From Alphaproteobacteria bacterium (lineage in GTDB: Bacteria > Pseudomonadota > Alphaproteobacteria > SHVV01), in assembly GCA_965261735.1 (NCBI GenBank), contig OZ253470.1:1216001-1280000 (forward strand): DNA of 64,000 nucleotides. The letters run 5' to 3'. The position numbers were made by a program, and so were the translations under genes. Of this stretch, positions 1 to 18,505 are shown piece after piece; position 1 is the first letter of the stretch, and the number at the start of each line of letters is the position of its first letter. Under the pieces are notes generated by a model. It saw only the letters and a list, made by a program, of their open reading frames with translations, ran no database searches and was not told the DNA's origin.

Positions 1-4
1 CAAG

Positions 5-325
5 TTGGATGCGCCGGTCGAGCTCGTGAACCTGCGCGCCGTCGGTACCGGCCGGGTGGTGAAGATCAAGTTCCCGAGCTTCGAGAAGCAAGGCAGCGAT
101 CCCTCCCCCGCCATGGTGGATCAACACCGGGTCTACTTCGACGGCAACTTTGTGTCGGCCAACGTTTACGATCGCAACCTGCTCGCCGCGGGCAACCGCA
201 TCTCGGGCCCAGCGGTGGTCACACAAACGGATTCGACCACCCTCATCCACCCCGCGCACAGCGGAGAGGTGGACGCGTATCTGAACATCTTGATTTATCC
301 GCAGGGCGCGAGTCCTTCGGCATGA
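5..325 (+). CDS. Hydantoinase/oxoprolinase A subunit, C-terminal part (runs off window start)
   Basis: VELVNLRAVGTG...YDRNLL..GNRISGPAVVTQTDSTTLIHP...VDAYLNILI matches the C-terminus of the HyuA paralog at 15686-17764. Confidence 0.85.
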   Translation: MDAPVELVNLRAVGTGRVVKIKFPSFEKQGSDPSPAMVDQHRVYFDGNFVSANVYDRNLLAAGNRISGPAVVTQTDSTTLIHPAHSGEVDAYLNILIYPQGASPSA

Positions 326-333
326 GGTGAACC

Positions 334-2625
334 ATGACTGACCTGAACCCGCCGCGCAGATCGGTCTCGCTGGACGACTTGCTGAAGGCCAACAAGGCGC
401 AGTTCGACAGTGTCTTCGCGGCCCAGATGAGGGACACGGGCCTGGTGAGCGTGACCCATCGGCCGGCCACGGCAGAGGATCTTGTCTCGGCTAGCCTAGG
501 GGTCCGGGCGGTCGTCGACGGCGACGATAGTACGGCACTCCTCGACGGGCGGTTTGGCGAGGGTTGGTCATCCGAGGTCGTCGAACACAAGACCGAAGGC
601 GGCTCGGTCACGGTGCTGTGCAAGCTCGTGGTGGACGGGGTTTCAAAAATGCAGTTCGGTGCGGCACGGATCAACGGCGATCAGGGTGCCGCTCTGCAAA
701 GGGCGACCGACGAGGCGCTCAAGAAGTGTGCGGCCCTGTTCGGGCCGCGAGAGGGGCTGCCGGAGGCAGAGGCCGGAGGCCCCGCCGCCCGACCGCAAGA
801 GGCGCCGGCCGCGGGAGCCCAGCCCGATGCCGCCGTGCCCAGCCTCGCCGCCCCCACTAGCCGTGCGCTGGACACGATCACCCTGGATCTCATCGAAAAC
901 GCGCTGCGCAACGCCCGGCACGAGATGGACGCCGTACTCTTCCGCTCCGCCATGTCACCCGTGATCCGCGAGCAACACGACGAGTTTCCCATGATCACCG
1001 ACCCCAAGGGGCGGATGATCGTCGGCCAGTTCGGCTCCTACGTCGCCGAGATGCTGCGCGAGCAGAACATGCAGGTTGATCCGGGCGACGTCATTCTCAA
1101 TAACGATCCCTTCAAATGCGGCGGCGCCATCAGCCATATCAACGATTGGCTCGTGCTCGTGCCGATCTTTCACGGCAACGAACTTGTCGGCTTCAGCTCC
1201 ATGTTCGGCCACATGATGGACGTCGGCGGCTGGGTGCCCGGCAGCATGCCGACCGCCGCCACGTCGATCTTCGGCGAGGGAATCCGCATCCCGCCGATCA
1301 AGATCTACGCGAAGGGCGAGATCAACAAGGCGGCGCTCGGCATCATCATGAACAACACGCGCACGCCCGAAATGAACTACAGCGACCTCATGGCTATCAT
1401 CGCCGGCTGCCGTGCCGGCGAGAAGCGGGTGATCCAGATCTGCGACCGCTTCGGTAAGGACACCTACATTCAGGCGTGTGAGGCCCTGCTTGAGCGTACC
1501 AACCGCGCGATGCGGCAGCTCATCGTTCAGAACCTGCCCAATGAGCCTCAGTCGTTCGAAGACTACGTAGATGATGACGGCTGCGGCAACGGCCCCTTCA
1601 AGATGAAACTGACCGTGTGGCGCGAGGGCGACGAGGCCTTCTTCGATTGGACGGGGACCTCAGATCAGGCGCCGGGTCCGATCAATTTCTTCCTCAACGA
1701 GGGCATGTTCAAGATGTTCATCGGGGTCTACATGATCATGGTGTTCGACCCCCAGATTCTCTTCAACGACGGATTCTACGACCTCATTCACGTGACCCTA
1801 CCCAAAGGGTCGCTCGTGCACCCGGAGTTCCCGGCAGCGCTGGGCTGCCGCACGCACGCCCTCGCCCGCCAGTTCGACGTCCTCGGCGGCGCGCTGAGTA
1901 AAAACGCGCCGGAAATGGCCACTGCCGCCGGCTATGGCTCAAGCCCTCACTTCCTGTACTCGGGCGTTGACGGCGATGGCCGCCCGTTCCAGCTCATGGA
2001 GATACTGTTTGGCGGGATTCCCGGCCGCCCGGTAGGCGACGGCATGGATGGCCACTCGTGGTGGCCGCTATTCGAGAATATTCCCACCGAATACCTCGAA
2101 ACCTACTATCCGATGATCATCGAAAACTACACCACGCTAGCCGACACCGGCGGCGCTGGGAGGCACCGCGGCGGCAACGGCGTCGAAAAGGTTTACTTGT
2201 TGTTGGAGAACGGCGAGATCTCCATCCACGATGACCGCCATCTCACCCAGCCGTGGGGGATTCTCGGAGGACAACCGGGCGCTTGCTCGGAAAAATGGCT
2301 GGAGAAAGAGGACGGGTCCAGGGAGCCGTTGCCCTCGAAGGTGGACAACGTAAGAGTGCGCGGGGGCGACAGGATCATCTTCCGCACCGCCGGCGGCGGC
2401 GGCTGGGGCGACCCATTGGAACGCGAGCCGGCAAAGGTGCGCGGCGACGTGGTGCGCGGTCTCTTGACCGTGGGCGCCGCCCAGGAACGGTACGGCGTGG
2501 TCATCGGCAGCGTCGGGCTCACCATTGACGACCGGGCGACCCAGGAGTTGCGCGAGAAGCTGAAAGGGAATCGAGGGACCCTCCCGGTGTTCGATTTTGG
2601 TGCGCAGCCATCGGGTCATGCATGA
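334..2625 (+). CDS. Hydantoinase B/oxoprolinase subunit with N-terminal Rad52/Rad22-like domain
   Basis: Core from aa ~179: LDTITLDLIENAL, MSPVIREQHD, NDPF..GGAISHIND, GHMMDVGG, GRHRGGNG, TAGGGGWGDP; ~178-aa N-terminal extension; GAGG RBS. Confidence 0.9.
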   Translation: MTDLNPPRRSVSLDDLLKANKAQFDSVFAAQMRDTGLVSVTHRPATAEDLVSASLGVRAVVDGDDSTALLDGRFGEGWSSEVVEHKTEGGSVTVLCKLVVDGVSKMQFGAARINGDQGAALQRATDEALKKCAALFGPREGLPEAEAGGPAARPQEAPAAGAQPDAAVPSLAAPTSRALDTITLDLIENALRNARHEMDAVLFRSAMSPVIREQHDEFPMITDPKGRMIVGQFGSYVAEMLREQNMQVDPGDVILNNDPFKCGGAISHINDWLVLVPIFHGNELVGFSSMFGHMMDVGGWVPGSMPTAATSIFGEGIRIPPIKIYAKGEINKAALGIIMNNTRTPEMNYSDLMAIIAGCRAGEKRVIQICDRFGKDTYIQACEALLERTNRAMRQLIVQNLPNEPQSFEDYVDDDGCGNGPFKMKLTVWREGDEAFFDWTGTSDQAPGPINFFLNEGMFKMFIGVYMIMVFDPQILFNDGFYDLIHVTLPKGSLVHPEFPAALGCRTHALARQFDVLGGALSKNAPEMATAAGYGSSPHFLYSGVDGDGRPFQLMEILFGGIPGRPVGDGMDGHSWWPLFENIPTEYLETYYPMIIENYTTLADTGGAGRHRGGNGVEKVYLLLENGEISIHDDRHLTQPWGILGGQPGACSEKWLEKEDGSREPLPSKVDNVRVRGGDRIIFRTAGGGGWGDPLEREPAKVRGDVVRGLLTVGAAQERYGVVIGSVGLTIDDRATQELREKLKGNRGTLPVFDFGAQPSGHA

Positions 2626-2720: not shown

Positions 2721-5537
2721 ATGCTCGACATAGCGATCCCAATCCTCATCTTCGCGATCATTGTCATCGCCATCCTGTATGTCGTCTCAATCTGGATTTA
2801 CAAGCGTTCGCCCACCAACATGGCATTCATCCGCACCGGTTTCCTGGGCACCAAGGTATGCCTGGGCCGGGGCGCTCTGGTGTTTCCGGTTTTCCACGAG
2901 GTCACTTGGGTTTCCCTGGAGACGATCAAACTCATCGTAAGCCGCGCCCGTGAGCAGGGCGTTCTCACAGCCGACAAGATCCGCATCGACGTCGGCGCCG
3001 AGCTCTACGCCCATGTCGGCCACACGCCCGAGGCCATTCTCACGGCGAGCCGGAGTTTGGGCGAGAAGACATTCGACGCCGAGAAGGTACGCAACCTGCT
3101 CGAGGCCAAGGTCGTCAGCGCGCTCAGGAGCTACGCGGCGACCAAGACCCTTAGCGAGCTGCACGAAAACCGGGACGCCTTTGCCCGCGAAATCAAAGCT
3201 AGTGTGACGGAGAGCTTTGAGGCCAATGGCCTCACGCTTGAGGAAGTGACGATCGTCACCATGGAGCAAACGCCAAAGGAGTACTTCAAGACCGACAACG
3301 TGTTCGACGCCGAGGGGCTCAAGATCATCACGGAAATCACTTCCGATGCCCGTAGAGAGGTCCACGACACCGAGAAGCGCACGACCGTGTCCATCCGCCA
3401 GAAGGACCTGGACACGCAACTCGAGCTCCTCGAAATCGAACGGCAGGAGGCCGTCGCCCGGGCGGGCCAGGACAAGGCAGTATCCAACGAGCAGGCGCTT
3501 CAGCTCGGCCAAAAGCAGATCTACGTTCTCGACCAGCGCAAAGCCGTCGAGGAAAAGGAGATCGAGAACGAGAAAGCGCTGGAGCGCATGCGGACCGATC
3601 GCGATCTGATCATCACCGAAGAGGCGAAGAAGCGCGAGGCTTCCGAGATCCAAAAAGAGTTGGCACTAGAGCAGGAGCGCAAGGACCGGGAGATTGCGAT
3701 TATCGCCAAGGCGAGGGAAGAAGAGCTGGCCAACATCGCACGCAATCTAGCTCTCGAGCAGGCTGAGAAAGATCGCCAAATCGCCTTGATCGCCAAGGCG
3801 AAGCAGGAGGAATTGGCCGATATCGAGCGAGCGCTGGCACGCGATCGGGCCGCGAAAAACAGCGAAATCGAGCTCATCGCCACGGATCAGGAACGCCAGC
3901 AGACTGAGATTCAGCGTGCCACGGCGGTTATGGCCGAGGAGGAGGCGGCACGCGATCGGCGCCATCAGGCTGGTGAGGAGGCCGCCATATCCATGCGCAG
4001 GCGTAGCCTCCAGACCCGCCTCAGCACGCTTGACCTGGACAAGGACGAGGCGTTCGCCGAAGCCCGCCAGGAGCAAGAGGTGTCCAACGAAAAGGCGCGC
4101 GTACTCAGCGAACAACAGCGCTTCATCCTCGAGCAGCGTTGGCAAGTCGAAGAAGAAGAGATCAACAAGGCGCGGGCGGTCGAGGCCGCCGAAATCCACA
4201 AGGAAGCCGGAATTATCGAAACCATGAAAACACGCGAGGCCGCCGAGGTGCGCCGTGCCCTGGCCCGCGAGCAGGAGGAAAGGGACCGTGAGATCGCGCT
4301 GGTCGCCAAGTCGCAGGAGCTCGAACAGGCGGAAATCCGCCGCAAGTTGGCGGGCGAACAGGAAGATCGCGACCGCCAGCTCGCCCTTGTCGCCAAGGAG
4401 GAAGAGCTGCGACGTGCCGAGGTGAGGCAGGCCCTGGCGGTCGAGCTCGAGGAACGAGCCCGCGAGATCACGCTCATTGGCAAGGAACAGGAGCGCGAAA
4501 TAGCGGATATCGGTCGCTTTCTGGCGCGCGAAAAGGAGGAACGCGACCGCGAGATCGCGTTGGCCGAAAAAACTCGGCAGCTGGAGGAAGCGGAGATCAA
4601 GCGCCTGGAGGCCTCCGCAAAGAGGGAGCGGGCCCAGCACAACGTGGAATCGGTGAGCCTCCTCGCCGACGCCGAGCGCACCAAGAACATCGAACGCGTC
4701 GAAGCCGAAAGGTTGGCTGAAAGCCGTCGGATCGACGAGGAAAATAAGGCCCAGATCAACCGCATGCACATGCTGGCTCAAGCCGAGACGCGGAAGCTGT
4801 CGGCTGAGCAGGAATCCGATGCGACGCTCATCAGAGCTCGCGCTACGAGCGAGGCCCAGAAGATTACCGCCGAGGGGATCGAGAAGGAGGCGGGGGCCAC
4901 AGGCCGGGCCGAAATGGAGATCGAAGCGCTGCGTGCCGCCAACGCCCGGCGCATGCTCGAGGCCGAGGCTTCAGGCCTTGAAGCCAAGGCGGTCGCGCTG
5001 AAGAAGTACAACGAGTCCGGGGCCTTCCTGGAATTGGCAAAGATGCGTATCGAGGCCGAGCGCGACATCCACATCGATCAGGCCAAGGCCATGGGGAGCG
5101 CCCTGCAGGGTGCGCAAATCCGCATGTATGGCGGCGAGAATGGCACCGTCGATACCATTCGCAGCATGTTTACCTCTGGGTTCGCGCTCGGCGAGGTTCT
5201 GGAGGGGGTGGCGCAGTCCTTACCCGAGGGCTTGCGCGGGCGATTCAAGGACAACGGCCTCAGGGGTCTTTTCGGCAAGCCGTACGGGACCAGCGATTTC
5301 AAGCATTCCATCGAGGACTTGAGCAAGCTGGTCCAGAAGAGCTTGCGTACGCGCAAAGACAAGGAGATCCCCTTCGCGGAAGCCGTGACCATTTTGCAGG
5401 AAAAGGCCGGCGGGGATGACGGCCAGGCGAAAGCGGTCGGCCTTCTCAAGGAGATGAACGAACAGGGGCAATTCGACGACCTTTCCTTTGACAAGGTGTG
5501 GGCGCTTATAAGAGCCGCGGCAAAGTCGGCGGACTGA
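2721..5537 (+). CDS. SPFH/flotillin-like (YqiK-type) membrane protein with greatly extended helical stalk
   Basis: N-terminal TM helix, AFIRTGFLG, VFPVFHEV, LTADKIRIDV..ELY, NGLTLEEVTI, NVFDAEGL..IT, long E/R/A-rich helical region, flotillin-type C-terminus. Confidence 0.88.
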   Translation: MLDIAIPILIFAIIVIAILYVVSIWIYKRSPTNMAFIRTGFLGTKVCLGRGALVFPVFHEVTWVSLETIKLIVSRAREQGVLTADKIRIDVGAELYAHVGHTPEAILTASRSLGEKTFDAEKVRNLLEAKVVSALRSYAATKTLSELHENRDAFAREIKASVTESFEANGLTLEEVTIVTMEQTPKEYFKTDNVFDAEGLKIITEITSDARREVHDTEKRTTVSIRQKDLDTQLELLEIERQEAVARAGQDKAVSNEQALQLGQKQIYVLDQRKAVEEKEIENEKALERMRTDRDLIITEEAKKREASEIQKELALEQERKDREIAIIAKAREEELANIARNLALEQAEKDRQIALIAKAKQEELADIERALARDRAAKNSEIELIATDQERQQTEIQRATAVMAEEEAARDRRHQAGEEAAISMRRRSLQTRLSTLDLDKDEAFAEARQEQEVSNEKARVLSEQQRFILEQRWQVEEEEINKARAVEAAEIHKEAGIIETMKTREAAEVRRALAREQEERDREIALVAKSQELEQAEIRRKLAGEQEDRDRQLALVAKEEELRRAEVRQALAVELEERAREITLIGKEQEREIADIGRFLAREKEERDREIALAEKTRQLEEAEIKRLEASAKRERAQHNVESVSLLADAERTKNIERVEAERLAESRRIDEENKAQINRMHMLAQAETRKLSAEQESDATLIRARATSEAQKITAEGIEKEAGATGRAEMEIEALRAANARRMLEAEASGLEAKAVALKKYNESGAFLELAKMRIEAERDIHIDQAKAMGSALQGAQIRMYGGENGTVDTIRSMFTSGFALGEVLEGVAQSLPEGLRGRFKDNGLRGLFGKPYGTSDFKHSIEDLSKLVQKSLRTRKDKEIPFAEAVTILQEKAGGDDGQAKAVGLLKEMNEQGQFDDLSFDKVWALIRAAAKSAD
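3345..4631 (+). repeat. Intragenic ~200-aa tandem duplication containing 29-aa repeats in the flotillin stalk
   Basis: DARREVH..QDKAVSNEQA.. (3345) aligns with AARDRRH..QEQEVSNEKA.. (3945), offset 600 nt; repeats LALEQERKDREIAIIAKAREEELANIARN / LAREQEERDREIALVAKSQELEQAEIRRK. Confidence 0.8.
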
Positions 5538-5557
5538 GCCGGCGCTCGGGACAGGGC

Positions 5558-6640
5558 ATGACGCAGCACGACGTCGTTCTGAAAGGCGTGGACAAGACCT
5601 TCGTGGGCGACGTTCGTGCCGTGATCGACTTCAATGCCGAGATCGAGCACGGCGAGTTCGTAGCCATGCTCGGGCCGAGCGGCTGCGGCAAGACCACCAT
5701 GCTGCGCCTGATCGGCGGGCTCGAAGAGGTGACCGCGGGACGCATCTACATCTCCGAGCAAGACGTGACGGACCTGCCGCCGTCGCAGCGCGACACCGCG
5801 ATGATGTTTCAGAGCTTCGCGCTCTTCCCGCACCGCACGGTGCTGCAGAATGTTGAGTTCAGTCTCAAGACCAAGGGGCTGCCGAAAGACGAGCGCGCGC
5901 GCCACGTGTGGGAGATGCTCGAATTGGTGAGCCTCGCCGAGCTCGCCAACCGCTATCCCCGTGATCTGAGCGGAGGGCAACAGCAGCGCGTCGCCCTGGG
6001 CAGGGCTTTGATCGCCAGACCGACCGTACTTCTACTCGATGAGCCGCTCGGCTCTCTCGACTACAGCCTGCGCCAAGCCATGATGGTCGAGCTCAAGAAG
6101 ATTCAGCGCGAGCTGGGAATCACCTTCATCATGGTCACCCACTCCCAGCAGGAAGCGTTGTCCATGGCGGACAAGGTGATCGTAATGAGCGATGCCGTGA
6201 TTCAGCAGATCGGCACGTCGCGGGAAATCTACGAGCACCCGCGAACCAAGTTCGTGGCCGAATTCGTCGGCAACAACAACTTGTTCCAGGGGACCGTCCG
6301 ATCGCGCAGCGGTTCCATCGTGTTCGTGGAAACCAATGGCCACTTGTTCTACGTGAGAATCCCCGAGCACATGCGCCAGGTGCCGATCGGCAAGGAAGCG
6401 TACTTCTCGGTGCGAGCCGACCGCATGCACACGGGCGAACAACCGGCCATGGCCAATCGGATCGAAGGCGAGTACGTCACCACCGAATTCATGGGCTCGC
6501 TGGAGACCGACGTTTTCGAGATCGCGCCCAGGATTTTCGTCCACGTCGAGCAGCACCGTAGCGCGTCGGATCGCGACTACAACATGGGGGACCGCGAAAC
6601 CATCTGCTGGGCGGCCGATGCGGGGGTGCTGCTCGACTAG
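5558..6640 (+). CDS. ABC transporter ATP-binding protein, PotA-like
   Basis: GPSGCGKTT, LSGGQQQRVALGRAL, LLLDEP, VTHSQQEA, C-terminal TOBE-like region; ATG at 5558. Confidence 0.92.
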   Translation: MTQHDVVLKGVDKTFVGDVRAVIDFNAEIEHGEFVAMLGPSGCGKTTMLRLIGGLEEVTAGRIYISEQDVTDLPPSQRDTAMMFQSFALFPHRTVLQNVEFSLKTKGLPKDERARHVWEMLELVSLAELANRYPRDLSGGQQQRVALGRALIARPTVLLLDEPLGSLDYSLRQAMMVELKKIQRELGITFIMVTHSQQEALSMADKVIVMSDAVIQQIGTSREIYEHPRTKFVAEFVGNNNLFQGTVRSRSGSIVFVETNGHLFYVRIPEHMRQVPIGKEAYFSVRADRMHTGEQPAMANRIEGEYVTTEFMGSLETDVFEIAPRIFVHVEQHRSASDRDYNMGDRETICWAADAGVLLD

Positions 6641-6652
6641 GAACCTCGATCG

Positions 6653-7480
6653 CTATCGCGAGCGGCGATAGAGGATGGTGTAGATCGCGACGAACAGAGC
6701 GATCATGGACAACGAAAAAAGCGTCGAGGCGGTGCCGAGCGCAAACAGCGTCGGCCGGATGCGCTGGGCCGTGGCGGCGTTGATGTCGAGCGGCAGTGTG
6801 TTGTACTGGCCCGAGAGCAGAGTCGTGCGCGCGAACTCGTCGTAGGAAAGCGTAAAGCCAAAGAGAGCAGCCGCCACGATGCCAGGCATAATCAGCGGCA
6901 GCGTCACCTCCCTGAACACGGTCCATTCGCTGGCGCCCATGTCGCGGGCCGCCTCCTCGACACTCTCATCGAAGCGGTTGAAAACCGCCATCATGACCAG
7001 GAACCCGAACGGCAGCGTCCACACCACGTGGACGCCCAAACCCGAGGACCACCACGCCGGTGCAATCGCCACCTGCTTCAGCAGGGTCGCGAGCCCGAGA
7101 CTGAGCAGGATCCCCGGCACCATGAGGCCCGCCAAGATCGTGTAGAACAAGAGGCCCGAGCCTGGGAACGGTTTGCGAAATGCCATCGCCAACATGGTGG
7201 AGAACAGGGCGGTGACGACCATCACGATCAGCGCCAGAATCAACGAGCGCAGCAACGCCCCCTGCATGTCGCCGACCACCGAGGGCTCAATCAGCTTGTT
7301 CCACCAGTACAGGCTGACGCCGCGCATGGGAAAGCTCACGCCCCCTCGGCGCCCCTGGAACGAAAGGATGAACATGGCGATCATCGGCCCATAGATGAAG
7401 AGGAGGAACAGGATGTAGTAGGCGCTGAAACCGGTCTTGATCCAGGCCTTCTTTCTCCTTTCCGGGGTCGAGCGAGCCAC
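6653..7480 (-). CDS. ABC transporter permease, PotC-like
   Basis: Multiple TM helices; EEAARDMGAS EAA motif; FTLSYDEF. Confidence 0.9.
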   Translation of the reverse strand: MARSTPERRKKAWIKTGFSAYYILFLLFIYGPMIAMFILSFQGRRGGVSFPMRGVSLYWWNKLIEPSVVGDMQGALLRSLILALIVMVVTALFSTMLAMAFRKPFPGSGLLFYTILAGLMVPGILLSLGLATLLKQVAIAPAWWSSGLGVHVVWTLPFGFLVMMAVFNRFDESVEEAARDMGASEWTVFREVTLPLIMPGIVAAALFGFTLSYDEFARTTLLSGQYNTLPLDINAATAQRIRPTLFALGTASTLFSLSMIALFVAIYTILYRRSR

Positions 7481-7481
7481 C

Positions 7482-8471
7482 TCAAAGCTCCTTGCGAATG
7501 TCGACCAGCCTCAGGATGATGACCACGCCGATCATCATGGCGAGCATCAGCATGAGGGCGTTTACCGCGGCGAAGGGATAGTTCGCTATACCGTAATAGT
7601 TCAGGATCACCGTCCCCGCTGTGCTGGTTTTTCCGCCGTACACCACAACCGCGGTCGCGAACTCCCCCATGATCAGCACGAAGATGAAGATCATTCCGAT
7701 GGCCACCCCCGGGAGTGAGAGCGGGCCGATGATCTCGCGGAAAATCTGGAACGGTTTGGCGCCCATATCGCGCGCCGCCTCGAGGATCGTCTTTTCGATT
7801 TTCGCCAGCGAGAAAAAGATGGGTCCGACGCACAGCACAACGTAGAGCTGCACCAACGCCATCGTGTAACTGAACTGCGAATACAGCAGGAACTCGACGG
7901 GCTTGTCGATGATGCCCATGTCGAGCAAGGCCCTGTTGAGCAGGCCGCGCCGCCCCAGCATGGGCAGCCAGGCCACGGCGCGGATCAGGTAGCTGGTCCA
8001 GAACGGCACCATGCAAAACAGAAACAGCGTGATCTGCCACTTGAAGCTCTTCACCTGCATGGCGAGGAAATAGGCGATCGGGTATCCAAACAGCAGACAG
8101 AAGAGCATCACGACAATGGTGAATTTGAAAGTCGTCCAGAGAGTCCGGACAAAGATGCCTGGGGTCAGAAACCCAACGGAGGAGGGATCGAGGAATCCCT
8201 CGACGGTGAAGTAGTCCGCGTAGTGGCGGAGGGTCAGATCGGGCTCCATGCCGTGGCCCGTGGACTTCCAAAAGCTGAAAACAACGATGCTGGCCAAGGG
8301 CACAACCAGGAACAGCAGCAGCCAGACGACGGCGGGCGTAATCAGCCAGCCCACGGGGAACCCAGCCTGTCGCCAGGTTTTCGCGGCCCGGGCCTCTGTT
8401 TCCGGCGCCGTCGGCTGGCTGCCGATCAGCCCTGAGTGGTGCGCATGCTCGGCTTGCTGCATACCAGTCAA
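7482..8471 (-). CDS. ABC transporter permease, PotB-like
   Basis: GYPIAY, PFWTSYLIR, LEAARDMGA, PLSLPG. Confidence 0.9.
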   Translation of the reverse strand: MTGMQQAEHAHHSGLIGSQPTAPETEARAAKTWRQAGFPVGWLITPAVVWLLLFLVVPLASIVVFSFWKSTGHGMEPDLTLRHYADYFTVEGFLDPSSVGFLTPGIFVRTLWTTFKFTIVVMLFCLLFGYPIAYFLAMQVKSFKWQITLFLFCMVPFWTSYLIRAVAWLPMLGRRGLLNRALLDMGIIDKPVEFLLYSQFSYTMALVQLYVVLCVGPIFFSLAKIEKTILEAARDMGAKPFQIFREIIGPLSLPGVAIGMIFIFVLIMGEFATAVVVYGGKTSTAGTVILNYYGIANYPFAAVNALMLMLAMMIGVVIILRLVDIRKEL

Positions 8472-8494
8472 GATTCAAAAGGCACGGAAGGACT

Positions 8495-8529
8495 AGGACC
8501 GGGCAAACCGGTGGGATTTGCCCGGTCCT
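8495..8529 (-). promoter_or_regulatory. Intergenic stem-loop downstream of the binding-protein gene (mRNA stabiliser or attenuator)
   Basis: Perfect 13-bp stem AGGACCGGGCAAA / TTTGCCCGGTCCT with a 9-nt loop. Confidence 0.55.
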
Positions 8530-8640
8530 TGGGGAGACGGCAGATCCCTGGGGACGCCACCGGTTCTCTAGGCGGGCGCGGCCGAAGCCGCCCGCACCCG
8601 CCACGACTACCGGGCCATCGGTCCGGCAACAAACATCGGA

Positions 8641-9945: not shown

Positions 9946-10160
9946 CGATTCTCTCCTCCCGTTGACAACGTGGGTTCCTGTAGAGACGCCCGTTGAAGCT
10001 TGAATAAATCCTAGGGAAGCCGCCTCCAAGAGTCCATCCAAACATCATCGCCGGCGCCAGCAGCGCAGCCGTCAAAGCCTTTGCCTCGCCGCGATAGCCG
10101 CGCGCATACTGGCCGCCGGTCGAGCGCTAGATCGAGGCCGAGACTGCCCGGGAGGATGTC

Positions 10161-13432: not shown

Positions 13433-15673
13433 CTAGCGAGACCGCAATCGCTGGGTCTCCTCCGAATTCAGGGTGTCAGCGACCGGATCGATGGCGACTC
13501 CGTAAACATCTCGGGCGATCTCTATTGTTATGTAGTCGTCCAGATAATCGCCCAGCACCATCGCCGGATCACGCGCTTTAGGATCGCCGTAGCCACCGCC
13601 GGAGGGCGCCGTGATTTGGATCAGATCGCCAGCTTCCATCTTATATCCGGTGACCTTGGAGGGCCAGTTCTGCTCTTCTGCCGTGCCCGGGTTCTTAACG
13701 AGCTTGCCCGTGTGGCCTTCCGTCCCACCGAAGACGCCGTGCGGCTTTTCCAGGTGGCGGTCCGCCTCACACGAGATGTAACCCGGTGCGAGGAACCGGT
13801 TCTCGCGCACGATGCCGATGCCGCCGCGCCACTGGCCGGCGGCCGGAGGATCGGGCCGCAACTCGTAGCGCTCGTTGCGGATCGGATAGTGCATGTCGAG
13901 CTCTTCGACCGGATTGTTGCGCGTGTTGGCCATAAGGTTGTCGACGCTGTCCATGCCGTCCTTGCCGTGTCGGCCGCCGTAACTCCCCTCGTCGACCTCC
14001 AGATAAACCCAGTATTGCTGTTTCTCGGGAATGAACCCGCTGTAGGAGATGAAATAGAGCGACGCGGAATTGCCCCCGGTCGCCCTTTCCGGGATGACCG
14101 GCGACAGCGCGTGAATGACGCAGTCCAGCACCCTCTGAATCTGGGCGAAGCGTGAAAAGCAGGCGCGCGGAAAGTTTGGATTGAAGATCGTGCCCTTGGG
14201 GGCAATGACGTTGACCGGGCGGAAGATGCCCTCGTTTTGCGGGATGAACTCCTCGAAGGTCACTTCGTCCAGCATTAGGGTACGAACGATGTAGTTGCAA
14301 GCGACCACGAGACTGCCCTCGAAGGGCACGTTGAAGCCGGTCTCCACCTCGGCCGCCGACCCGGTGAGGTCGATGGTGATGTCGCTGCCCTTGACACGCA
14401 CGGTGACGTTGACCTTCAGCGGCGTATCGCGGTTTTTCCCGTCGTCATCCAGCCAGCCCTCGGAGTGGTACTCACCGTCGGGAACCTTTTCGATCTCGGC
14501 GCGCAGCATTCTTTCCGAGTAGTCCATCCAATAGTTTGCCGTGCCCATGACGGTGTCCGCGCCGTATTTCCCGACGAGCCGCAGAAAACGCTCGCGTCCG
14601 ATTTCCACCGCCGCGATCATCGCCTCGATATCCGAGGTATCCATGTCGGGGGTGCGCACGTTGTCCTTGAGGAGTTGCCAGACCTCCTCGTTACGGGTTC
14701 CGCGGTCGTACAACTTGATGGCGTTGAAGAGCTTGGACTCGGCGTAGACGTCGACCACGTCGACATTGATGCCGGGGGCGGCGCCGCCCATGTCGAGCAG
14801 GTGCGCGGTGCAGGCGGAGAACCCCAATAGCCCGCCGTCATGAACGATGGGCACGATCACGGCCACGTCGGGCGTATGCGAGGCGCCGTAATAGGGGTGG
14901 TTGTGGATGATGACGTCGCCCTCGTGGATGTTGCCGGCCAACCGTTTCAGGATGCCTCTGATGTACCAGGGAAGAGAACCGATGTGCATCGGCGTGCTCT
15001 CGCTCTCGCAGAGCTCATTCCCTTCCATGTCGAAAATGCCGCAACCCAGGTCCTCCGACTCGCGAATGATGCTCGAGTAGGACATTCGGTAAAGGACGTG
15101 GGCCATCTCCTTGGCGATGGCGTTGAAGGCGCCGCCCACCACGCGAAGCGTGACTGGGTCGAGGTCCTGATATGAAAAGTCGGTAATCTTCGATGGCGCC
15201 GGACGGCCAGTCAGCGCCACCGCGGTCGAAACTGGCTCGGAGTCGGCCTGTCGCAACGCTGGCAGCTGGGGCGCGGGCGCCGGCCGCAGAGCCTCCGCCG
15301 CCGGTTCCGTTGCCTCGGGCGGGGAGGCTACCGGAGCGTCCGTTGTGGCCGGTAGCCCCGGTCGCGGCCGGACCGTGTCCGGCGGCGCGGCGCCCCGCCC
15401 GGTATCGACGAGCGTCATTGCGCACTGGAGGAGGCTGTCGTCGGAGGCGACCTCGAGCTGCTCGCCCAGCGACAGACCACCGCGCCCGTTGGCCGTTCCC
15501 GATTTTCGCACCTGGGCGCCGTCCGCCCGCAGCTCGCCTTCCACTTCCACGCCGTCGCCACGCAGGTGGTGGTTGATAATGTCGAAACTCCAACCGTCGC
15601 CGTAGGCGTCGCGGAGTGCCTTGACGACGGCGGGGACGGTTGTTGGTCCCGTCGTACTTGGCGCGTCATTCAT
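13433..15673 (-). CDS. hyuB: Hydantoinase B / N-methylhydantoinase B subunit with N-terminal Rad52/Rad22-like domain
   Basis: Core from aa ~171: LDPVTLRVV, YSSIIRESED, NHPYYGASHTPD, AHLLDMGG, GQWRGGIG, PSGGGYGDP; ~170-aa N-terminal extension. Confidence 0.9.
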   Translation of the reverse strand: MNDAPSTTGPTTVPAVVKALRDAYGDGWSFDIINHHLRGDGVEVEGELRADGAQVRKSGTANGRGGLSLGEQLEVASDDSLLQCAMTLVDTGRGAAPPDTVRPRPGLPATTDAPVASPPEATEPAAEALRPAPAPQLPALRQADSEPVSTAVALTGRPAPSKITDFSYQDLDPVTLRVVGGAFNAIAKEMAHVLYRMSYSSIIRESEDLGCGIFDMEGNELCESESTPMHIGSLPWYIRGILKRLAGNIHEGDVIIHNHPYYGASHTPDVAVIVPIVHDGGLLGFSACTAHLLDMGGAAPGINVDVVDVYAESKLFNAIKLYDRGTRNEEVWQLLKDNVRTPDMDTSDIEAMIAAVEIGRERFLRLVGKYGADTVMGTANYWMDYSERMLRAEIEKVPDGEYHSEGWLDDDGKNRDTPLKVNVTVRVKGSDITIDLTGSAAEVETGFNVPFEGSLVVACNYIVRTLMLDEVTFEEFIPQNEGIFRPVNVIAPKGTIFNPNFPRACFSRFAQIQRVLDCVIHALSPVIPERATGGNSASLYFISYSGFIPEKQQYWVYLEVDEGSYGGRHGKDGMDSVDNLMANTRNNPVEELDMHYPIRNERYELRPDPPAAGQWRGGIGIVRENRFLAPGYISCEADRHLEKPHGVFGGTEGHTGKLVKNPGTAEEQNWPSKVTGYKMEAGDLIQITAPSGGGYGDPKARDPAMVLGDYLDDYITIEIARDVYGVAIDPVADTLNSEETQRLRSR

Positions 15674-15685
15674 CGCCGGGCCCCG

Positions 15686-17764
15686 TTAGTGCAGTTTGAT
15701 GAGAAGGTTGCCGTGAGAGTCTACCTCCGCAAGCAGCTCCGGCAAAATGAGGGTCGTGGTGTCCGCTTGCTCGACGATGGCGGGCCCCTGGATCACATTG
15801 CCCCTCTTCAGACGCCGCCGGTCGTAGATAGGTGTGGAGACACTCGCGGGGCGCCCGCCGTCATCAAAAACGACGCTGCGACGCGCCGTCAACGCATCGG
15901 CGTCCGGTTCGCGCGAGCCCGCCGGTAGCTCCGCGGTACGAAGCTCCGGGATCTTGCCGAGGCCGATCACCCGGATGTTCACCAGCTCGACGTCCTTGTC
16001 CTCGAAATGCCGGCCATATTCACGTTCATGCGTGCGGTGGAACTCCGCAATCAACTGTTCGATAAAACCAGCGTCCACGTTACCGGCGGGGGCGTCGACC
16101 CGCAGCTCGTATCCCTGCCCGTGATAGCGGCACTCCGCGACCCTCAGGAACATCCGGTCCTGTCGTCCGGTGTTGTCGCTGTCCAGCTGCCTCGCGGCCA
16201 GCTGCTCGAGCTGCGCGTAGTCCTCGGCGATTGGGCCGAGGTCCGGTTTGCTCAGGAGCTGCAGCTGGGTGCGGCTGAAATCGTAGGACAGATCGGTGGC
16301 CAGCAGGCCGAGGGCGGACGTAAGGCCCGGACTAGGTGGCACGATCACCAAGGGAATCGCTAGTTCCAACGCCACCTCGCAGGCCTGTAGGGGCCCGGCC
16401 CCGCCAAACGCCACCAGGGCGAACTCGCGCGGGTCGTACCCCTTGCGCACGCTGTTCATCTCGATCGACTGGATCATGCCGTGGTTGAGGATCTTGATCG
16501 CCCCGAGCGCCGCCTCCTCCACCGACATGGCGAGTTGGGCGCACAGGTGTTTCTCGATACCCTGGCGCGACAGGTCGAACCGGAGCCCCATCTTGCCGCC
16601 GAGGAAGTTGTCCGGATTGAGCCTCCCCAGTACGGCGTTACAATCGGTCGACGTGGGTAGCTCACCCCCTCTGTCATAACAGCAGGGACCGGGTAGCGCC
16701 CCGGCGCTTCTCGGCCCGACTCGAAACACGCCGCCCTTGTCGACATAGGCGATCGAGCCGCCTCCGGCGCCGATGGTGTCGATATCCACCATGGGGACCA
16801 TGGCCTGGTAGTCACCAATCTTCGTGTCGAGCAGATGCTTCATGCTCATCCGGCCGTCGGGCGCCACGCCGATGTCGGCCGAGGTCCCCCCCACGTCCAG
16901 GGTGATCGCATTCTTGTACCCGGCCAGACCGCTGGCCCAGATGCCTCCGATCAACCCGGCGACGGGTCCCGACATCAGCAGCGTCACGGGCCGGCGAGTC
17001 GCGCCCTGAGCAGTGGCAACCCCCCCGTTGGCCTGCATCAGATGCAGGTCCGAACGGAACTGCTCCTGCTTCATGGCGCGGTTCAAATTGTCCACGTAGG
17101 TCGCGGTCTTCGGCCCGACGTAGGCATTGAGACAGGTCGTGGTGAAGCGCTCATATTCCCTGTACTGGGGTATCACCTCGTGACTGAGCGACAGAAACAC
17201 CTCGGGCCATTCCTCGCGGATGATCTCTCCGGCCCGCTTTTCGTGGGCCGGATTGAGGAAGGAGAACATGAAGCAGACCGCGACCGCCTCGACGCCCGCG
17301 CGCTTGAGCTTACGGATGGCCTCGCGCACGCCCTCCTCGTCAAGGGGAACGAGCACCTCGCCATCCGGAGCGATGATGCGCTCCTTGACGGTCAGGCGAT
17401 AACGTCGCCTGACCAACGGATATTTCTGCCAGGGCAGATCCTGCTGGATGCTGAAGTTGTAAGGGCGCTTGTGGCGGGCGATGTGGAGGATGTCCCGGTA
17501 ACCCTCGGTGGTGATGAGCCCCGCCTTCGCTCCGTCGTGTTGCAGGATGATGTTGGTCGCGATGGTGGTGCCGTGGAAGAACTGCTCCACGTCGGAGGGA
17601 GCGACGCCGGCGCTCTCGCAGATCTCTAGTGCCCCGCCAATGGTACCGATCGAGGGGTCATCCGGGGTGGTGGGAACCTTGTTGAGGTCTATCGTCCCCT
17701 TCTCGTCGTTGACGAGTACGAGGTCGGTGAACGTTCCCCCGACATCCACGCCCATCCGAATCAA
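15686..17764 (-). CDS. hyuA: Hydantoinase A / N-methylhydantoinase A subunit (ATP-dependent)
   Basis: GVDVGGTFTD, HGTTIATN, SGPVAG, DVGGTSAD, IGAGGGSI, FGGAGPL. Confidence 0.93.
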   Translation of the reverse strand: MIRMGVDVGGTFTDLVLVNDEKGTIDLNKVPTTPDDPSIGTIGGALEICESAGVAPSDVEQFFHGTTIATNIILQHDGAKAGLITTEGYRDILHIARHKRPYNFSIQQDLPWQKYPLVRRRYRLTVKERIIAPDGEVLVPLDEEGVREAIRKLKRAGVEAVAVCFMFSFLNPAHEKRAGEIIREEWPEVFLSLSHEVIPQYREYERFTTTCLNAYVGPKTATYVDNLNRAMKQEQFRSDLHLMQANGGVATAQGATRRPVTLLMSGPVAGLIGGIWASGLAGYKNAITLDVGGTSADIGVAPDGRMSMKHLLDTKIGDYQAMVPMVDIDTIGAGGGSIAYVDKGGVFRVGPRSAGALPGPCCYDRGGELPTSTDCNAVLGRLNPDNFLGGKMGLRFDLSRQGIEKHLCAQLAMSVEEAALGAIKILNHGMIQSIEMNSVRKGYDPREFALVAFGGAGPLQACEVALELAIPLVIVPPSPGLTSALGLLATDLSYDFSRTQLQLLSKPDLGPIAEDYAQLEQLAARQLDSDNTGRQDRMFLRVAECRYHGQGYELRVDAPAGNVDAGFIEQLIAEFHRTHEREYGRHFEDKDVELVNIRVIGLGKIPELRTAELPAGSREPDADALTARRSVVFDDGGRPASVSTPIYDRRRLKRGNVIQGPAIVEQADTTTLILPELLAEVDSHGNLLIKLH

Positions 17765-17818
17765 GTCAAGCCCCCGTTCGCCTGTAACGGTGCATGCGCA
17801 GTCGGCGCCGTCGCGGAT

Positions 17819-18505
17819 TCAAGCACCGGTTTCCACCTTGGCCTGACCGAGGTAGTCGAGCACCCGCTCGAGGGGCTCCACGTCGCCGAACTTCGCGTCA
17901 ATGTCGAAGAGGTTCCAGTCGACGACGCCGGCCACCCGGTCGCCCACCGCCTCGCGGACGACAATCGGCCGGAACCCCTCGGCGATCGCATCTTCGGTCG
18001 TGTGGCGGACGCACGCGCTGACGGTCGTACCGGTGATGATGACCGTATCCACCCCGGCCGCCCTCAGGAAGCCGGCGAGATAGGTGCCGTGAAAGGCGCT
18101 GGCCCGCTTCTTGACGATAACATGCTCGCCGGCCTGCGGCGCGATGCGCTCGTCGATGGCAACGCCCTCGGTGCCGAGCTTCAAGACGGCCAGCGGAATC
18201 TTGAGATGCCACAGGCCCATGTCGGTATTCGGCCCTTCGGTGACGGCATAGGCGGTGGTCGTGTAGACGATGGGAATGCGCTTGGCGCGCGCCGCCGCCA
18301 GCAGCTTCTGGACGCTCGGAATGATCACGTCCATGCCGTCGCAACTGAACGCGTTGCCGGGGCGCGTCCAGGCGTTCGCGAGATCGATATTGATGAGCGC
18401 GGGCCATTCGCCAAAGCCAATTCGGCGCTGGAATCCCCGCTTCTTGTAGAGGTCGGAATCGGCGGAGAAGACCCGGCTCAGGGCCTTGCTAAGCTCTTCG
18501 TCCAT
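17819..18505 (-). CDS. N-carbamoylsarcosine amidohydrolase (isochorismatase family)
   Basis: RGFQRRIGFG, IDLANAWTRPG, DMGLW, KKRASAF, ACVRHT.EDAI, GDRVAGVVDWNLFDIDAKFGDVE closely resemble the Arthrobacter CSHase as recalled; Asp-Lys-Cys triad present. Confidence 0.85.
   Translation of the reverse strand: MDEELSKALSRVFSADSDLYKKRGFQRRIGFGEWPALINIDLANAWTRPGNAFSCDGMDVIIPSVQKLLAAARAKRIPIVYTTTAYAVTEGPNTDMGLWHLKIPLAVLKLGTEGVAIDERIAPQAGEHVIVKKRASAFHGTYLAGFLRAAGVDTVIITGTTVSACVRHTTEDAIAEGFRPIVVREAVGDRVAGVVDWNLFDIDAKFGDVEPLERVLDYLGQAKVETGA

Follow-up and report, generated by a model that had tools for sequence, protein, structure and literature searches.

Layout of the hyuB1 locus

The window analysed is a 64,000-nucleotide stretch of alphaproteobacterial DNA. 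At its left end hyuA1 is followed by hyuB1, an open reading frame at 334..2625 on the plus strand that starts with an ATG at 334 and encodes 763 aa. The hyuA1 stop codon (323-325) lies 8 nt ahead of the hyuB1 start and is overlapped by a Shine-Dalgarno-like GAGG motif (324-327), placed 6 nt before the ATG. The features referred to below, in window coordinates, are:

2..325 (+), 3' end of hyuA1 (Hydant_A_C); the full gene is at 16262..18325 of locus L007
334..2625 (+), hyuB1, comprising module a, linker 1, Rad52-like module b, Pro/Ala linker 2 and a Hydantoinase_B core
355..441 (+), module a (aa 8-36), conserved N-terminal helix (AF2 helix 13-34) with no Pfam family
442..516 (+), linker 1 (aa 37-61), low confidence, length 13-41 aa
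517..747 (+), module b (aa 62-138), Rad52/22 core without the hairpin: helix, three strands, helix
748..867 (+), linker 2 (aa 139-178), Pro/Ala-rich, predicted disordered (pLDDT ~29-48)
868..2625 (+), Hydantoinase_B/oxoprolinase core (PF02538)
2721..5537 (+), SPFH/Band 7 (flotillin-like) protein, 938 aa (PF01145, E 3e-16)
13433..15673 (-), hyuB2, 746 aa: module b, long Pro/Ala linker, HyuB core
15404..15619 (-), module b of HyuB2 (aa ~19-90), without module a, from BLASTP and a module-b HMM
15686..17764 (-), hyuA2 (Hydant_A_N, Hydantoinase_A, Hydant_A_C)

The enzyme core of HyuB1 is complete, with PF02538 matching aa 180-694 over profile positions 1-519 of 519 (E 1e-149). Its solved relatives include an N-methylhydantoinase (7hk5, E 5e-77) and a hydantoinase (6yra, E 3e-61), which cover only aa 167/178-742; aa 1-166 are covered by none of five solved relatives. 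The NCBIfam equivalogs for caprolactamase beta and ApcD scored far under their cut-offs against HyuB1.

An earlier note on this DNA had placed a Rad52/Rad22-like domain at nt 529-744. The open reading frame confirms this stretch as aa 66-137 of HyuB1, inside module b. The Pro/Ala linker to the HyuB core described in the same note was also borne out, being of low confidence, 20% identical and 29-46 aa long across 44 orthologues.

Conservation and translation of the N-terminal extension

Among the 44 orthologues, modules a and b had mean identities of 64% and 67% and were free of gaps; the enzyme core reached 78%, and linker 2 only 20%. In the full-length model residues 33-63 and 139-176, spanning the linkers, both had pLDDT <50. 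A search returned 158 fused proteins at E<=1e-3, and among the matches listed all 120 contain PF02538. Metatranscriptome contigs from one study cover 201-600 and 694-878, and another spans the hyuB-SPFH junction (2516-2839), although DNA carry-over is possible for each; parts of the stretch are left uncovered, and such holes prove nothing. No plus-strand terminator was returned by a promoter/terminator scan between hyuA, hyuB, the SPFH gene and the ABC gene; the scan says little, since terminator-like sites were just as numerous as expected from shuffled sequence.

The N-terminal extension is under selection and translated, as seen from its conservation, the fused proteins, the start coupling and the RNA contigs. 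That it stems from misannotation, or is a relic in decay outside the functional protein, is extremely improbable: nothing but a borderline score for the Rad52_Rad22 family (below) speaks for this, against gap-free conservation of both modules, tight coupling of the hyuB1 start to the hyuA stop, the many fused proteins and the contigs from RNA libraries.

Homology of module b to the Rad52/22 core

Residues 62-138 of HyuB1 descend from the core of the bacterial Rad52/22 single-strand-annealing proteins. The domain is a reduced form, made up of a three-stranded sheet, a crossing helix and one preceding helix, and it is placed between disordered linkers, after helix module a and before a normal HyuB core.

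PF04098 (Rad52_Rad22) matched HyuB1 at aa 59-138 on profile positions 30-128 of 153. The score was 16.8 bits for the whole protein, under the cut-off of 20.3, and 20.5 bits (E 5e-4) for the isolated 179-aa N-terminus, barely above it. With aa 1-140 as query, phmmer found 153 matches at E<=1e-3 in a library of 1.84 billion representatives. Two sets were selected by hand from the best 150 of these 153, by length and matched range. Set A1 consisted of 30 matches of ~126-322 aa that matched only aa ~50-138, and 28 of the 30 belong to PF04098 (best E 2.2e-19); set A2 consisted of 36 rows chosen as standalone forms, one of which matched PF04098 (E 0.0072). Direct phmmer E-values were 1e-6 to 1e-4 in this library of ~1.8 billion proteins. 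A further alignment, A3, was made from HyuB N-termini and standalone forms and has no bona fide Rad52 inside. Alignment of A3 to A1 with hhalign gave a probability of 99.7% and an E-value of 1.6e-26 over 80 columns, which identifies the Rad52/22-like pattern described earlier at aa 66-137 as a homologue of the bacterial core.

A model built with AF2 from A3 (pLDDT 85.2) has a helix at 65-74, strands at 78-88, 91-100 and 103-112, and a helix at 117-135. The three-stranded beta-sheet crossed by an alpha-helix, a trait of Rad52 single-strand-annealing proteins (SSAPs), is thus present, with pLDDT 95-98 there. The earlier note had proposed profile and Foldseek searches of this segment; the profile comparison with A1 and the Foldseek search both pointed to the Rad52 family. 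The top Foldseek matches were human RAD52, yeast Mgm101 and yeast Rad52. Superposition of model residues 63-139 on human RAD52 68-161 with VIA-align gave Z 10.5 and an rmsd of 2.0 Å over 77 residues, and Z was 9.8 for both yeast Mgm101 and yeast Rad52.

Convergence on a generic alpha-beta3-alpha (dsRBD-like) fold, without descent from Rad52, is very unlikely. Many dsRBD and ribosomal S5 domains reach Z ~7 to 7.8 against the model, the PF04098 score is borderline, and sequence searches of the PDB with the N-terminus and with profile A3 returned no Rad52, only chance matches at E ~0.5. Against this, no dsRBD- or S5-like fold exceeded those Z-scores and the Rad52-family structures outrank all of them; the hhalign match is to bona fide PF04098 proteins with motifs at the same positions, and the phmmer E-values were reached within a very large library.

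Loss of the hairpin and of conserved basic residues

Of the residues that are usually named for the inner groove of RAD52, two belong to the hairpin region. In module b the SSAP beta-hairpin is missing, no strand being present ahead of residue 78 in either model. The basic N-terminal segment is absent too, as the earlier note had suggested: there is no counterpart to the first ~68 columns of A1, to Pfam positions 1-29 or to RAD52 before residue 68. According to PMC11783212 the hairpin is part of the DNA-binding motif or groove and occurs in 98% of 10,280 SSAPs.

The conserved basic residues of the crossing helix, another SSAP trait, are kept less strictly in the 112 fused and 29 standalone forms compared. 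Positions 122/130/131 (HyuB1 numbering) are K in 100%, K/R in 99% and K/R in 99% of 28 bona fide bacterial Rad52s. The fused forms have Q42/R41 (%) at 122, R58/A15/K8 at 130 and K26/G18/R15 at 131, and 72% of the standalone forms have A at 130. For this comparison 7 of the 36 A2 rows (P0143, P0144, P0146, P0147, P0150, P0154, P0156) were dropped as fragments or frameshifted pieces of fused forms, two of the 30 A1 rows (P0251, P0258) were dropped as atypical by eye, and the long A1 rows P0194, P0244 and P0263 were trimmed to their C-terminal part. Fused, standalone and bona fide forms could not be told apart by net charge, which was discarded as a discriminator.

A canonical Rad52 (107 bits) is encoded elsewhere in the genome (G000:C1:902825-903247), where it adjoins a CI/LexA-like repressor.

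The domain might still bind single-stranded nucleic acid, so that it tethers or regulates the enzyme on DNA or RNA or moonlights in repair. This reading is quite unlikely. It has in its favour the annealase ancestry, a fold near that of dsRBD-like RNA binders, and the basic residues that the crossing helix keeps; with R or K at position 130 in about two thirds (~66%) of fused forms, residual nucleic-acid affinity could persist. The missing hairpin, the relaxation of otherwise invariant K/R positions, the retention of a canonical Rad52 and a gene context that is purely catabolic and membrane-related all argue against it, and the nucleic-acid tether suggested in the earlier note is accordingly disfavoured.

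Predicted self-association of module b

Four copies of aa 62-140 were submitted to complex prediction. The ipSAE was 0.60 (0.60, 0.59 and 0.60 in the individual runs) and that of the best control 0.00; partner pLDDT was at least 84, and the runs share at least 88% of contacts. When the method was calibrated, 20 of 30 solved homo-pairs and 1 of 23 single chains attained the mark; the calibration was based on two copies and the prediction on four. The predicted interface is asymmetric and head-to-tail: strand 1 (79-82) and helix 117-125 meet strand 3 (102-110) and residues 131-138. The prediction may have passed through likeness to, or memory of, the solved RAD52 and Mgm101 rings. Conservation did not mark the interface (0.54 against 0.57 for the rest, permutation p ~0.7). 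An oligomerisation module had been among the earlier suggestions; the four-copy prediction agrees with it, as a model that may lean on those solved rings.

Exaptation of the Rad52-fold domain as a self-association and tethering module, in place of DNA repair, is the favoured proposal and is given an even chance of being correct. Module b would no longer anneal DNA. It would associate with itself head-to-tail into a ring, arc or filament and act as the source of multivalency, and together with a free-standing a+b paralogue (below) it could gather HyuA/HyuB into a higher-order assembly through flexible tethers.

A different function, fairly unlikely, would be that of an intramolecular or inter-subunit accessory, i.e. 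a regulatory lid or an assembly aid for a HyuA/HyuB heterotetramer with no higher-order scaffold; such a role might be comparable to that of the small extra subunits of related carboxylases. The presence of module b on three lines of HyuB paralogues (copy 1, copy 2 and a 1117-aa b-HyuB-amidase fusion) is consistent with this, as it suggests a link to HyuB as such. The 29-46 aa linker to the core is poorly conserved and predicted to be disordered, a free-standing a+b protein exists, module b is missing from some SPFH-linked HyuBs and the homo-oligomer prediction passes its controls, all of which count against an accessory role.

Module a, the free-standing paralogue and the second HyuB

Module a, the free-standing paralogue, the part played by the b-only HyuB2 and the invariant SPFH neighbour had been overlooked in the first reading of the sequence. 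A search of the own genome found module a in three places only, and the idea of a widely used tag was dropped. The free-standing a+b paralogue (G000:C1:1209322-1209849) lies ~6.5 kb upstream of hyuB1 in the same conserved cluster. A fusion of module a to a peroxiredoxin had no relative beyond itself in a word-based search. A plain Prx5 is found near the locus in G070.

The N-terminus of HyuB2 is 34% identical to that of copy 1 (BLASTP, E 1e-11) and matches the module-b HMM at E 8.9e-9. It had no Pfam match, and a word-based search with it returned only itself and one relative. In the sister genus the b-HyuB-amidase fusion (L026) has no SPFH gene beside it.

The SPFH neighbour and the conserved cluster

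The SPFH gene scored 60.3 bits against PF01145 (cut-off 23.6). In its product a membrane segment is present at the N-terminus, and the middle part is long and rich in Glu, Ala and Arg; no NCBIfam name was obtained for it, and tandem repeat finder reported no tandem repeats in the gene. Wherever this could be assessed, the SPFH gene lies directly downstream of the tagged hyuB. SPFH orthologues (E<=1e-119) were found in 18 of 401 sampled genomes of the class, and these 18 are all among the 20 genomes matching A3. A tagged HyuB adjoins the SPFH gene in every one of them, module a being present in 18/18 and module b in 16/18; in the other two the SPFH-linked HyuB carries module a only. The order hyuA-hyuB-SPFH was seen in 15 of 16 MAG loci, the sixteenth ending within hyuB, and the cluster is kept in both of two sister-genus loci and in six loci of other families, one of them partly.

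Since module b occurs on HyuBs without an SPFH neighbour (copy 2, L026) and is missing from 2 of the 18 SPFH-linked ones, it is not required for the SPFH link, nor is it specific to it. Module a tracks the SPFH protein most strictly, which makes it the likelier candidate for a docking or targeting helix toward this giant protein.

The cluster also encodes an isochorismatase-type hydrolase, a PuuE-like deacetylase, a CobW GTPase and an ABC importer, with a dihydropyrimidinase nearby. From this content it looks like a cyclic-amide (hydantoin/pyrimidine-type) catabolic island.

Taken together, these elements might constitute a new bacterial enzyme assembly in which an SPFH scaffold, targeting helix a and a Rad52-derived hub b confine HyuAB. 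This wider proposal is tentative and considered unlikely. Module a would serve as a targeting helix common to HyuB and a small adaptor protein, and module b, a former DNA-annealing ring, would recruit or confine HyuAB at or inside an SPFH dome; the enzyme would be placed beside its ABC importer.

Novelty and significance

Rad52-superfamily domains are ring formers that handle DNA or RNA, and the physiological roles of bacterial flotillin-like proteins are mostly unclear. A hairpin-less Rad52 under purifying selection on a catabolic enzyme would indicate that the ring-forming core is reusable as a pure protein scaffold, and through the SPFH link a bacterial flotillin-like protein gains a definite candidate client that is open to experiment. 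About 150 database proteins named only 'N-methylhydantoinase B' or 'hypothetical protein' carry the two unannotated modules. Should the scaffold proposal be true, the Rad52 fold would for the first time have been put to a use other than nucleic-acid handling, and this SPFH 'cage' would be the first to hold a metabolic client.

Searches of a collection of open-access papers found no description of SPFH/flotillin proteins with hydantoinase, and a looser search for a Rad52 fold exapted as a scaffold gave nothing relevant among the matches listed. No description of Rad52 with hydantoinase or oxoprolinase was found in the same collection; Supplementary Table S1 of PMC11783212 and its screen of >100 million unannotated proteins could list the family.

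Comparison with known systems

ATP-dependent hydantoinase/oxoprolinase enzymes and acetophenone/acetone carboxylases have the same full-length core as HyuB1, and here hyuA is directly upstream. Bacterial and phage PF04098 proteins share with module b the core from the pre-Trp helix to the end of the crossing helix, including the conserved Trp, the Lys-x-Gln-Phe-Gly strand and the Ala/Leu/Cys helix positions. Module b differs from them in being without the beta-hairpin, the N-terminal segment and the C-terminal tail and in its relaxed basic helix residues; it is joined to a metabolic enzyme or encoded in one cluster with it, whereas the setting of PF04098 proteins is phage or recombination. Human RAD52, yeast Rad52 and Mgm101 are the closest structural matches, yet sequence identity is 18-21%, and module b has nothing equivalent to RAD52 ahead of residue 68 or beyond residue 161. 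These three have been solved as rings and lock-washers, and the packing predicted for module b is head-to-tail. RDM1, as described in PMC11783212, shows that a partial Rad52 motif can live within a protein having another main domain; there the motif accompanies an RRM and nucleic-acid binding is retained, whereas here the partner is a subunit of an ATP-dependent amidohydrolase.

Microcompartment and encapsulin targeting peptides resemble module a in being a short, conserved terminal amphipathic helix with a disordered linker and in being carried by at least two proteins from a single cluster. PF00936 (BMC shell) and PF04454 (family-1 encapsulin) had no matches in the own genome (98.08% complete), and classical compartment cargo was rejected for want of either shell gene.

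SPFH proteins are reported to form domed rings. HflK/C with FtsH provides the model of an SPFH cage around a client enzyme. Unlike in HflK/C-FtsH, the SPFH protein here has 938 aa, no NfeD/HflC-type partner was noticed, and the client, to which the SPFH gene is genetically coupled as a specific enzyme, would be a soluble metabolic one.

Domain layout of HyuB1

The window begins inside hyuA, whose stop codon (323-325) overlaps a GAGG motif. The hydantoinase B gene that follows was delimited with its Pfam domains as below.

334-2625, + strand: hyuB1, ORF of 763 aa starting at ATG 334
HyuB1 aa 180-694: Hydantoinase_B (Pfam, E 1e-149, whole profile covered)
HyuB1 aa 59-138: Rad52_Rad22, PF04098 (profile positions 30-128 of 153), the sole other Pfam match

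PF04098 scored 16.8 bits in whole HyuB1 and 20.5 bits with the N-terminus isolated (cut-off 20.3); an NCBIfam profile search returned no name for the N-terminus. The stretch 529-744, for which an earlier note had proposed a Rad52/22-like domain, corresponds exactly to aa 66-137. The N-terminus was divided into an N-terminal helix (module a, aa 8-36) and the Rad52-like core (module b, aa 62-138), separated by linker 1 and followed by linker 2 (aa 139-178). Among 44 orthologues, identity to the window protein was 64% in module a (gap-free), 67% in module b, 78% in the enzyme core, 48% in linker 1 (13-41 aa) and 20% in linker 2 (29-46 aa). Module a was helical in both predicted models of HyuB1. 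The full-length model, built on alignment A4 (45 rows), had a pLDDT of 71.4, with module b at 83-91 and residues 33-63 and 139-176 below 50; the latter, together with the low identity of linker 2, bears out the Pro/Ala linker that had been placed before the HyuB core. As modelled, the HyuB1 N-terminus is a string of beads, modules a and b being carried on disordered tethers.

Rad52 homology of module b

HyuB1 aa 1-140 was searched with phmmer against 1.84 billion cluster representatives, giving 153 matches at E<=1e-3 (40 at <=1e-10, 10 at <=1e-30). These were fused HyuBs or their fragments (class 1), ∼140-190-aa proteins matching nearly the whole query (class 2), ∼200-320-aa proteins matching aa ∼50-138 only at E 1e-6 to 1e-4 (class 3) and a few proteins matching aa 1-60 only (class 4). 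Alignment A1 was assembled from 30 chosen class 3 proteins, 28 of them belonging to PF04098 (best E 2.2e-19) and 6 additionally matching Mgm101p, and A2 from 36 chosen class 2 proteins, one of which matches PF04098 (E 0.0072). Alignment A3 contained the window N-terminus, fused fragments and standalone a+b forms (49 rows, no bona fide Rad52). A3 and A1 were matched by hhalign with a probability of 99.7% (E 1.6e-26, 80 columns), from the helix ahead of the conserved Trp through to where the long helix ends.

An AlphaFold2 model generated from A3 (pLDDT 85.2) contained helices at 13-34, 47-55, 65-74 and 117-135 and strands at 78-88, 91-100 and 103-112. Foldseek against the PDB, a check suggested in the earlier note, placed human RAD52 at the top (E 8e-5 to 1e-3), followed by yeast Mgm101, yeast Rad52 and, after these, dsRBD domains. 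VIA-align placed model residues 63-139 on RAD52 68-161 (Z 10.5, rmsd 2.0 Å, 77 residues); Mgm101 gave Z 9.8, yeast Rad52 Z 9.8 (rmsd 1.6 Å over 73 residues) and dsRBD and S5-type folds Z <=7.8. PDB sequence searches with the N-terminus and with profile A3 found no match. The profile, model and structure matches make the proposed Rad52 homology solid and identify module b as a reduced form: a Rad52-derived, hairpin-less domain.

Features lost from module b

Passages of a published account (PMC11783212) describe the Rad52 superfamily core as a three-stranded sheet with a crossing helix, to which a second helix, a beta-hairpin and a further helix lend stability; there, sheet and hairpin motifs both occur in 98% of 10,280 SSAPs and are linked to DNA binding. 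Of these elements, module b keeps the sheet with its crossing helix and a single helix before it. The beta-hairpin was not found in the Pfam and hhalign alignments, either predicted model or the VIA-align superpositions, and the first ∼68 columns of A1 had no partner in A3 by hhalign, in agreement with the earlier note, to which the basic N-terminal segment appeared absent.

A joint alignment was made of 112 fused, 29 standalone and 28 bona fide sequences, after 7 of 36 A2 and 2 of 30 A1 rows were dropped. Common to all three groups (window numbering) were L70, W78, E81, V94, L95, L98, K105, Q107, F108, G109, A124, A128, L129 and C132, in which the hydrophobic core is joined by several polar residues. 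Three positions diverge strongly. At position 122, bona fide sequences have K (100%) and fused ones Q (42%) or R (41%); at position 130, bona fide sequences have K/R (99%), fused ones R (58%), A (15%) or K (8%) and standalone ones A (72%); at position 131, bona fide sequences have K/R (99%) and fused ones K (26%), G (18%) or R (15%). These alignments suggest that module b has lost annealase function. It may retain residual nucleic-acid binding. Net charge did not separate the fused, standalone and bona fide groups. A canonical gene is kept elsewhere in the same genome (107.1 bits, full N-terminal segment), in a setting of prophage-like appearance.

G000:C1:902825-903247 (L005 1285-2115), + strand: canonical Rad52_Rad22, adjoining a CI/LexA-like S24 repressor ORF

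Predicted self-association

Four copies of aa 62-140 were predicted together in three runs with A3 as the alignment. The ipSAE values were 0.60, 0.59 and 0.60 (0.00 in three unrelated-partner controls), against a mark reached by 20 of 30 solved homo-pairs and 1 of 23 single chains, a calibration that is only rough for four copies with a custom alignment and in which likeness to solved complexes can yield a pass. Partner pLDDT was at least 84 and contact agreement between runs at least 88%. The predicted interface is asymmetric, formed by residues 64, 67, 71, 76-82, 85, 87, 96, 99, 117-118, 121-122 and 125 of one copy and 83, 88, 91, 93, 95, 97, 102-110, 131 and 134-138 of the next, a modelled pattern as expected for a ring or helical polymer and not for a closed dimer. 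Interface positions were no more conserved than other positions of module b; the conserved polar N/D71, E81, K105 and Q107 all lie inside the interface. Of the roles suggested in the earlier note, oligomerisation gains support from the four-copy model (0.60 versus 0.00 in controls), whereas a nucleic-acid tether is disfavoured by the absent hairpin and relaxed K/R positions.

Module combinations

The a+b+HyuB form of copy 1 was found in 158 proteins at E<=1e-3, with PF02538 present in 120 of 120 among the matches listed. HyuB with b only is represented by copy 2, whose module b is 34% identical to that of copy 1 (E 1e-11), and HyuB with a only by proteins P0176 and P0182 and by genomes G194 and G087. 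Free-standing a+b proteins are those of A2. In G070, G008 and G266, small proteins consist of module a, a linker and a short Gly-x-x-x-Gly-Ile-Pro-Phe-type C-terminal motif, with no b core; this glycine-rich motif recurs within an insertion of the standalone a+b proteins. Modules a and b each occur at 3 places in the window's genome, all inside ∼22 kb.

13433-15673 of the window, - strand: hyuB2 (b+HyuB)
G000:C1:1209322-1209849: free-standing a+b gene of the same genome
L007 10826-11314 (G000:C1:1208826-1209314), - strand: Prx5-type peroxiredoxin with N-terminal module a, ∼6.7 kb upstream of the window
L007 9855-10934, + strand: IS1595-like transposase ORF
L053 3343-3540 (-), L054 3174-3370 (-), L058 11540-11736 (+), approximate: a-only small proteins, beside an isochorismatase gene
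L026 1790-5143 (G003:C5), - strand: one 1117-aa ORF of module b, HyuB core and C-terminal amidase-like region

The 1117-aa b+HyuB+amidase fusion belongs to a sister genus and is flanked by two MmgE/PrpD-like genes; similar open frames of 1121-1159 aa occur in G001 and G002, and the form is absent from the window's genome. The module a-Prx5 ORF starts exactly where the free-standing a+b gene stops, and its C-terminus is truncated by the transposase ORF. A word-based search with it returned itself only, and the corresponding neighbourhood of G070 contains a plain Prx5; the fusion is probably a lineage-specific rearrangement. In P0132 (266 aa, metagenome) an unrelated helical C-terminal region takes the place of HyuB behind modules a and b; this protein may be an additional architecture or a chimera of assembly.

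Gene neighbourhood and the SPFH protein

The genes around hyuB1 are arranged as follows.

Upstream of the window, - strand: isochorismatase-family hydrolase, then the free-standing a+b gene
Upstream of the window, + strand: PuuE-like polysaccharide-deacetylase-family gene, 109-aa ORF (L007 13955-14284; no Pfam/NCBIfam family), CobW GTPase
L007 15389-16042, - strand: 217-aa membrane protein, Cys-x2-Cys pair near the N-terminus, no Pfam/NCBIfam family
Following it, + strand: hyuA1, hyuB1, SPFH protein, ABC ATPase
2721-5537, + strand: SPFH protein, 938 aa, no NCBIfam name
5498-10041: ABC importer
10161-11627, + strand: dihydropyrimidinase / D-hydantoinase (TIGR02033, 599.8 bits, over cut-off)

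The window further holds permeases, a solute-binding protein and hyuA2-hyuB2. With the dihydropyrimidinase lying between the two hyuAB pairs, and the importer alongside, the region looks like a pyrimidine/hydantoin-type catabolic island. The cluster is syntenic in two sister-genus genomes and recurs in other families of the class at six loci, four of them complete; one further locus lacks the 109-aa ORF and CobW, and another retains only the membrane protein, hyuA, an a-only hyuB, SPFH and standalone a+b. The membrane protein and 109-aa ORF are both kept in the cluster across families. This is a conserved catabolic cluster with a free-standing a+b paralogue.

The middle of the SPFH protein, roughly 500 aa, is Glu/Ala/Arg-rich with repeated themes of approximately 35 aa in translation; a tandem repeat search found no DNA repeat in the gene. 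Across 16 named MAG loci (Alphaproteobacteria, Xanthobacteraceae, Rhodospirillaceae), hyuA-hyuB-SPFH was present in 15, the remaining locus ending inside hyuB, and the membrane protein lay upstream in 14, the other two beginning inside hyuA. A3 matched 20 of 401 evenly sampled class genomes, and SPFH matches of orthologue grade (E<=1e-119, >=57% identity) occurred in 18, all within those 20, although the SPFH-positive genomes are related and the counts therefore overstate independence. The remaining flotillin-like matches were <=42% identical and mostly about 560-620 aa, leaving the orthologue group sharply separate. In each of the 18 genomes the SPFH gene begins about 2.3-2.4 kb beyond the tagged hyuB start; module a is found in every HyuB preceding it (18 of 18), and module b in 16. 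A3-positive genomes without the orthologue were G252 (a single weak match, E 9e-4) and G356 (810 contigs). Tagged HyuB and this distinctive giant SPFH protein show strict co-occurrence and adjacency.

Metatranscriptome contigs (two runs, one study) cover hyuB1 in part (201-600 and 694-878 among others) and also lie on the SPFH gene; one of 324 nt (2516-2839, one base omitted at 2670) bridges the hyuB-SPFH gap. As RNA libraries can contain DNA, and contigs give neither strand nor level, this is a weak hint of expression.

Interpretation

The main rival explanation gives module b a purely enzyme-internal role, in keeping with its recurrence on three HyuB paralogue lines. We favour a reading in which module b would act as a self-association hub, its DNA function lost, and module a as a docking element connected with the SPFH system; with the SPFH link, this becomes a concrete, testable hypothesis. 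Database names were solely 'N-methylhydantoinase B', 'hydantoinase B/oxoprolinase family protein' or 'hypothetical protein', and searches of an open-access library yielded no paper that linked Rad52 to hydantoinase or oxoprolinase, or that linked hydantoinase to SPFH or flotillin. The fold family, Rad52, is known, but its architectural and genomic setting is new.
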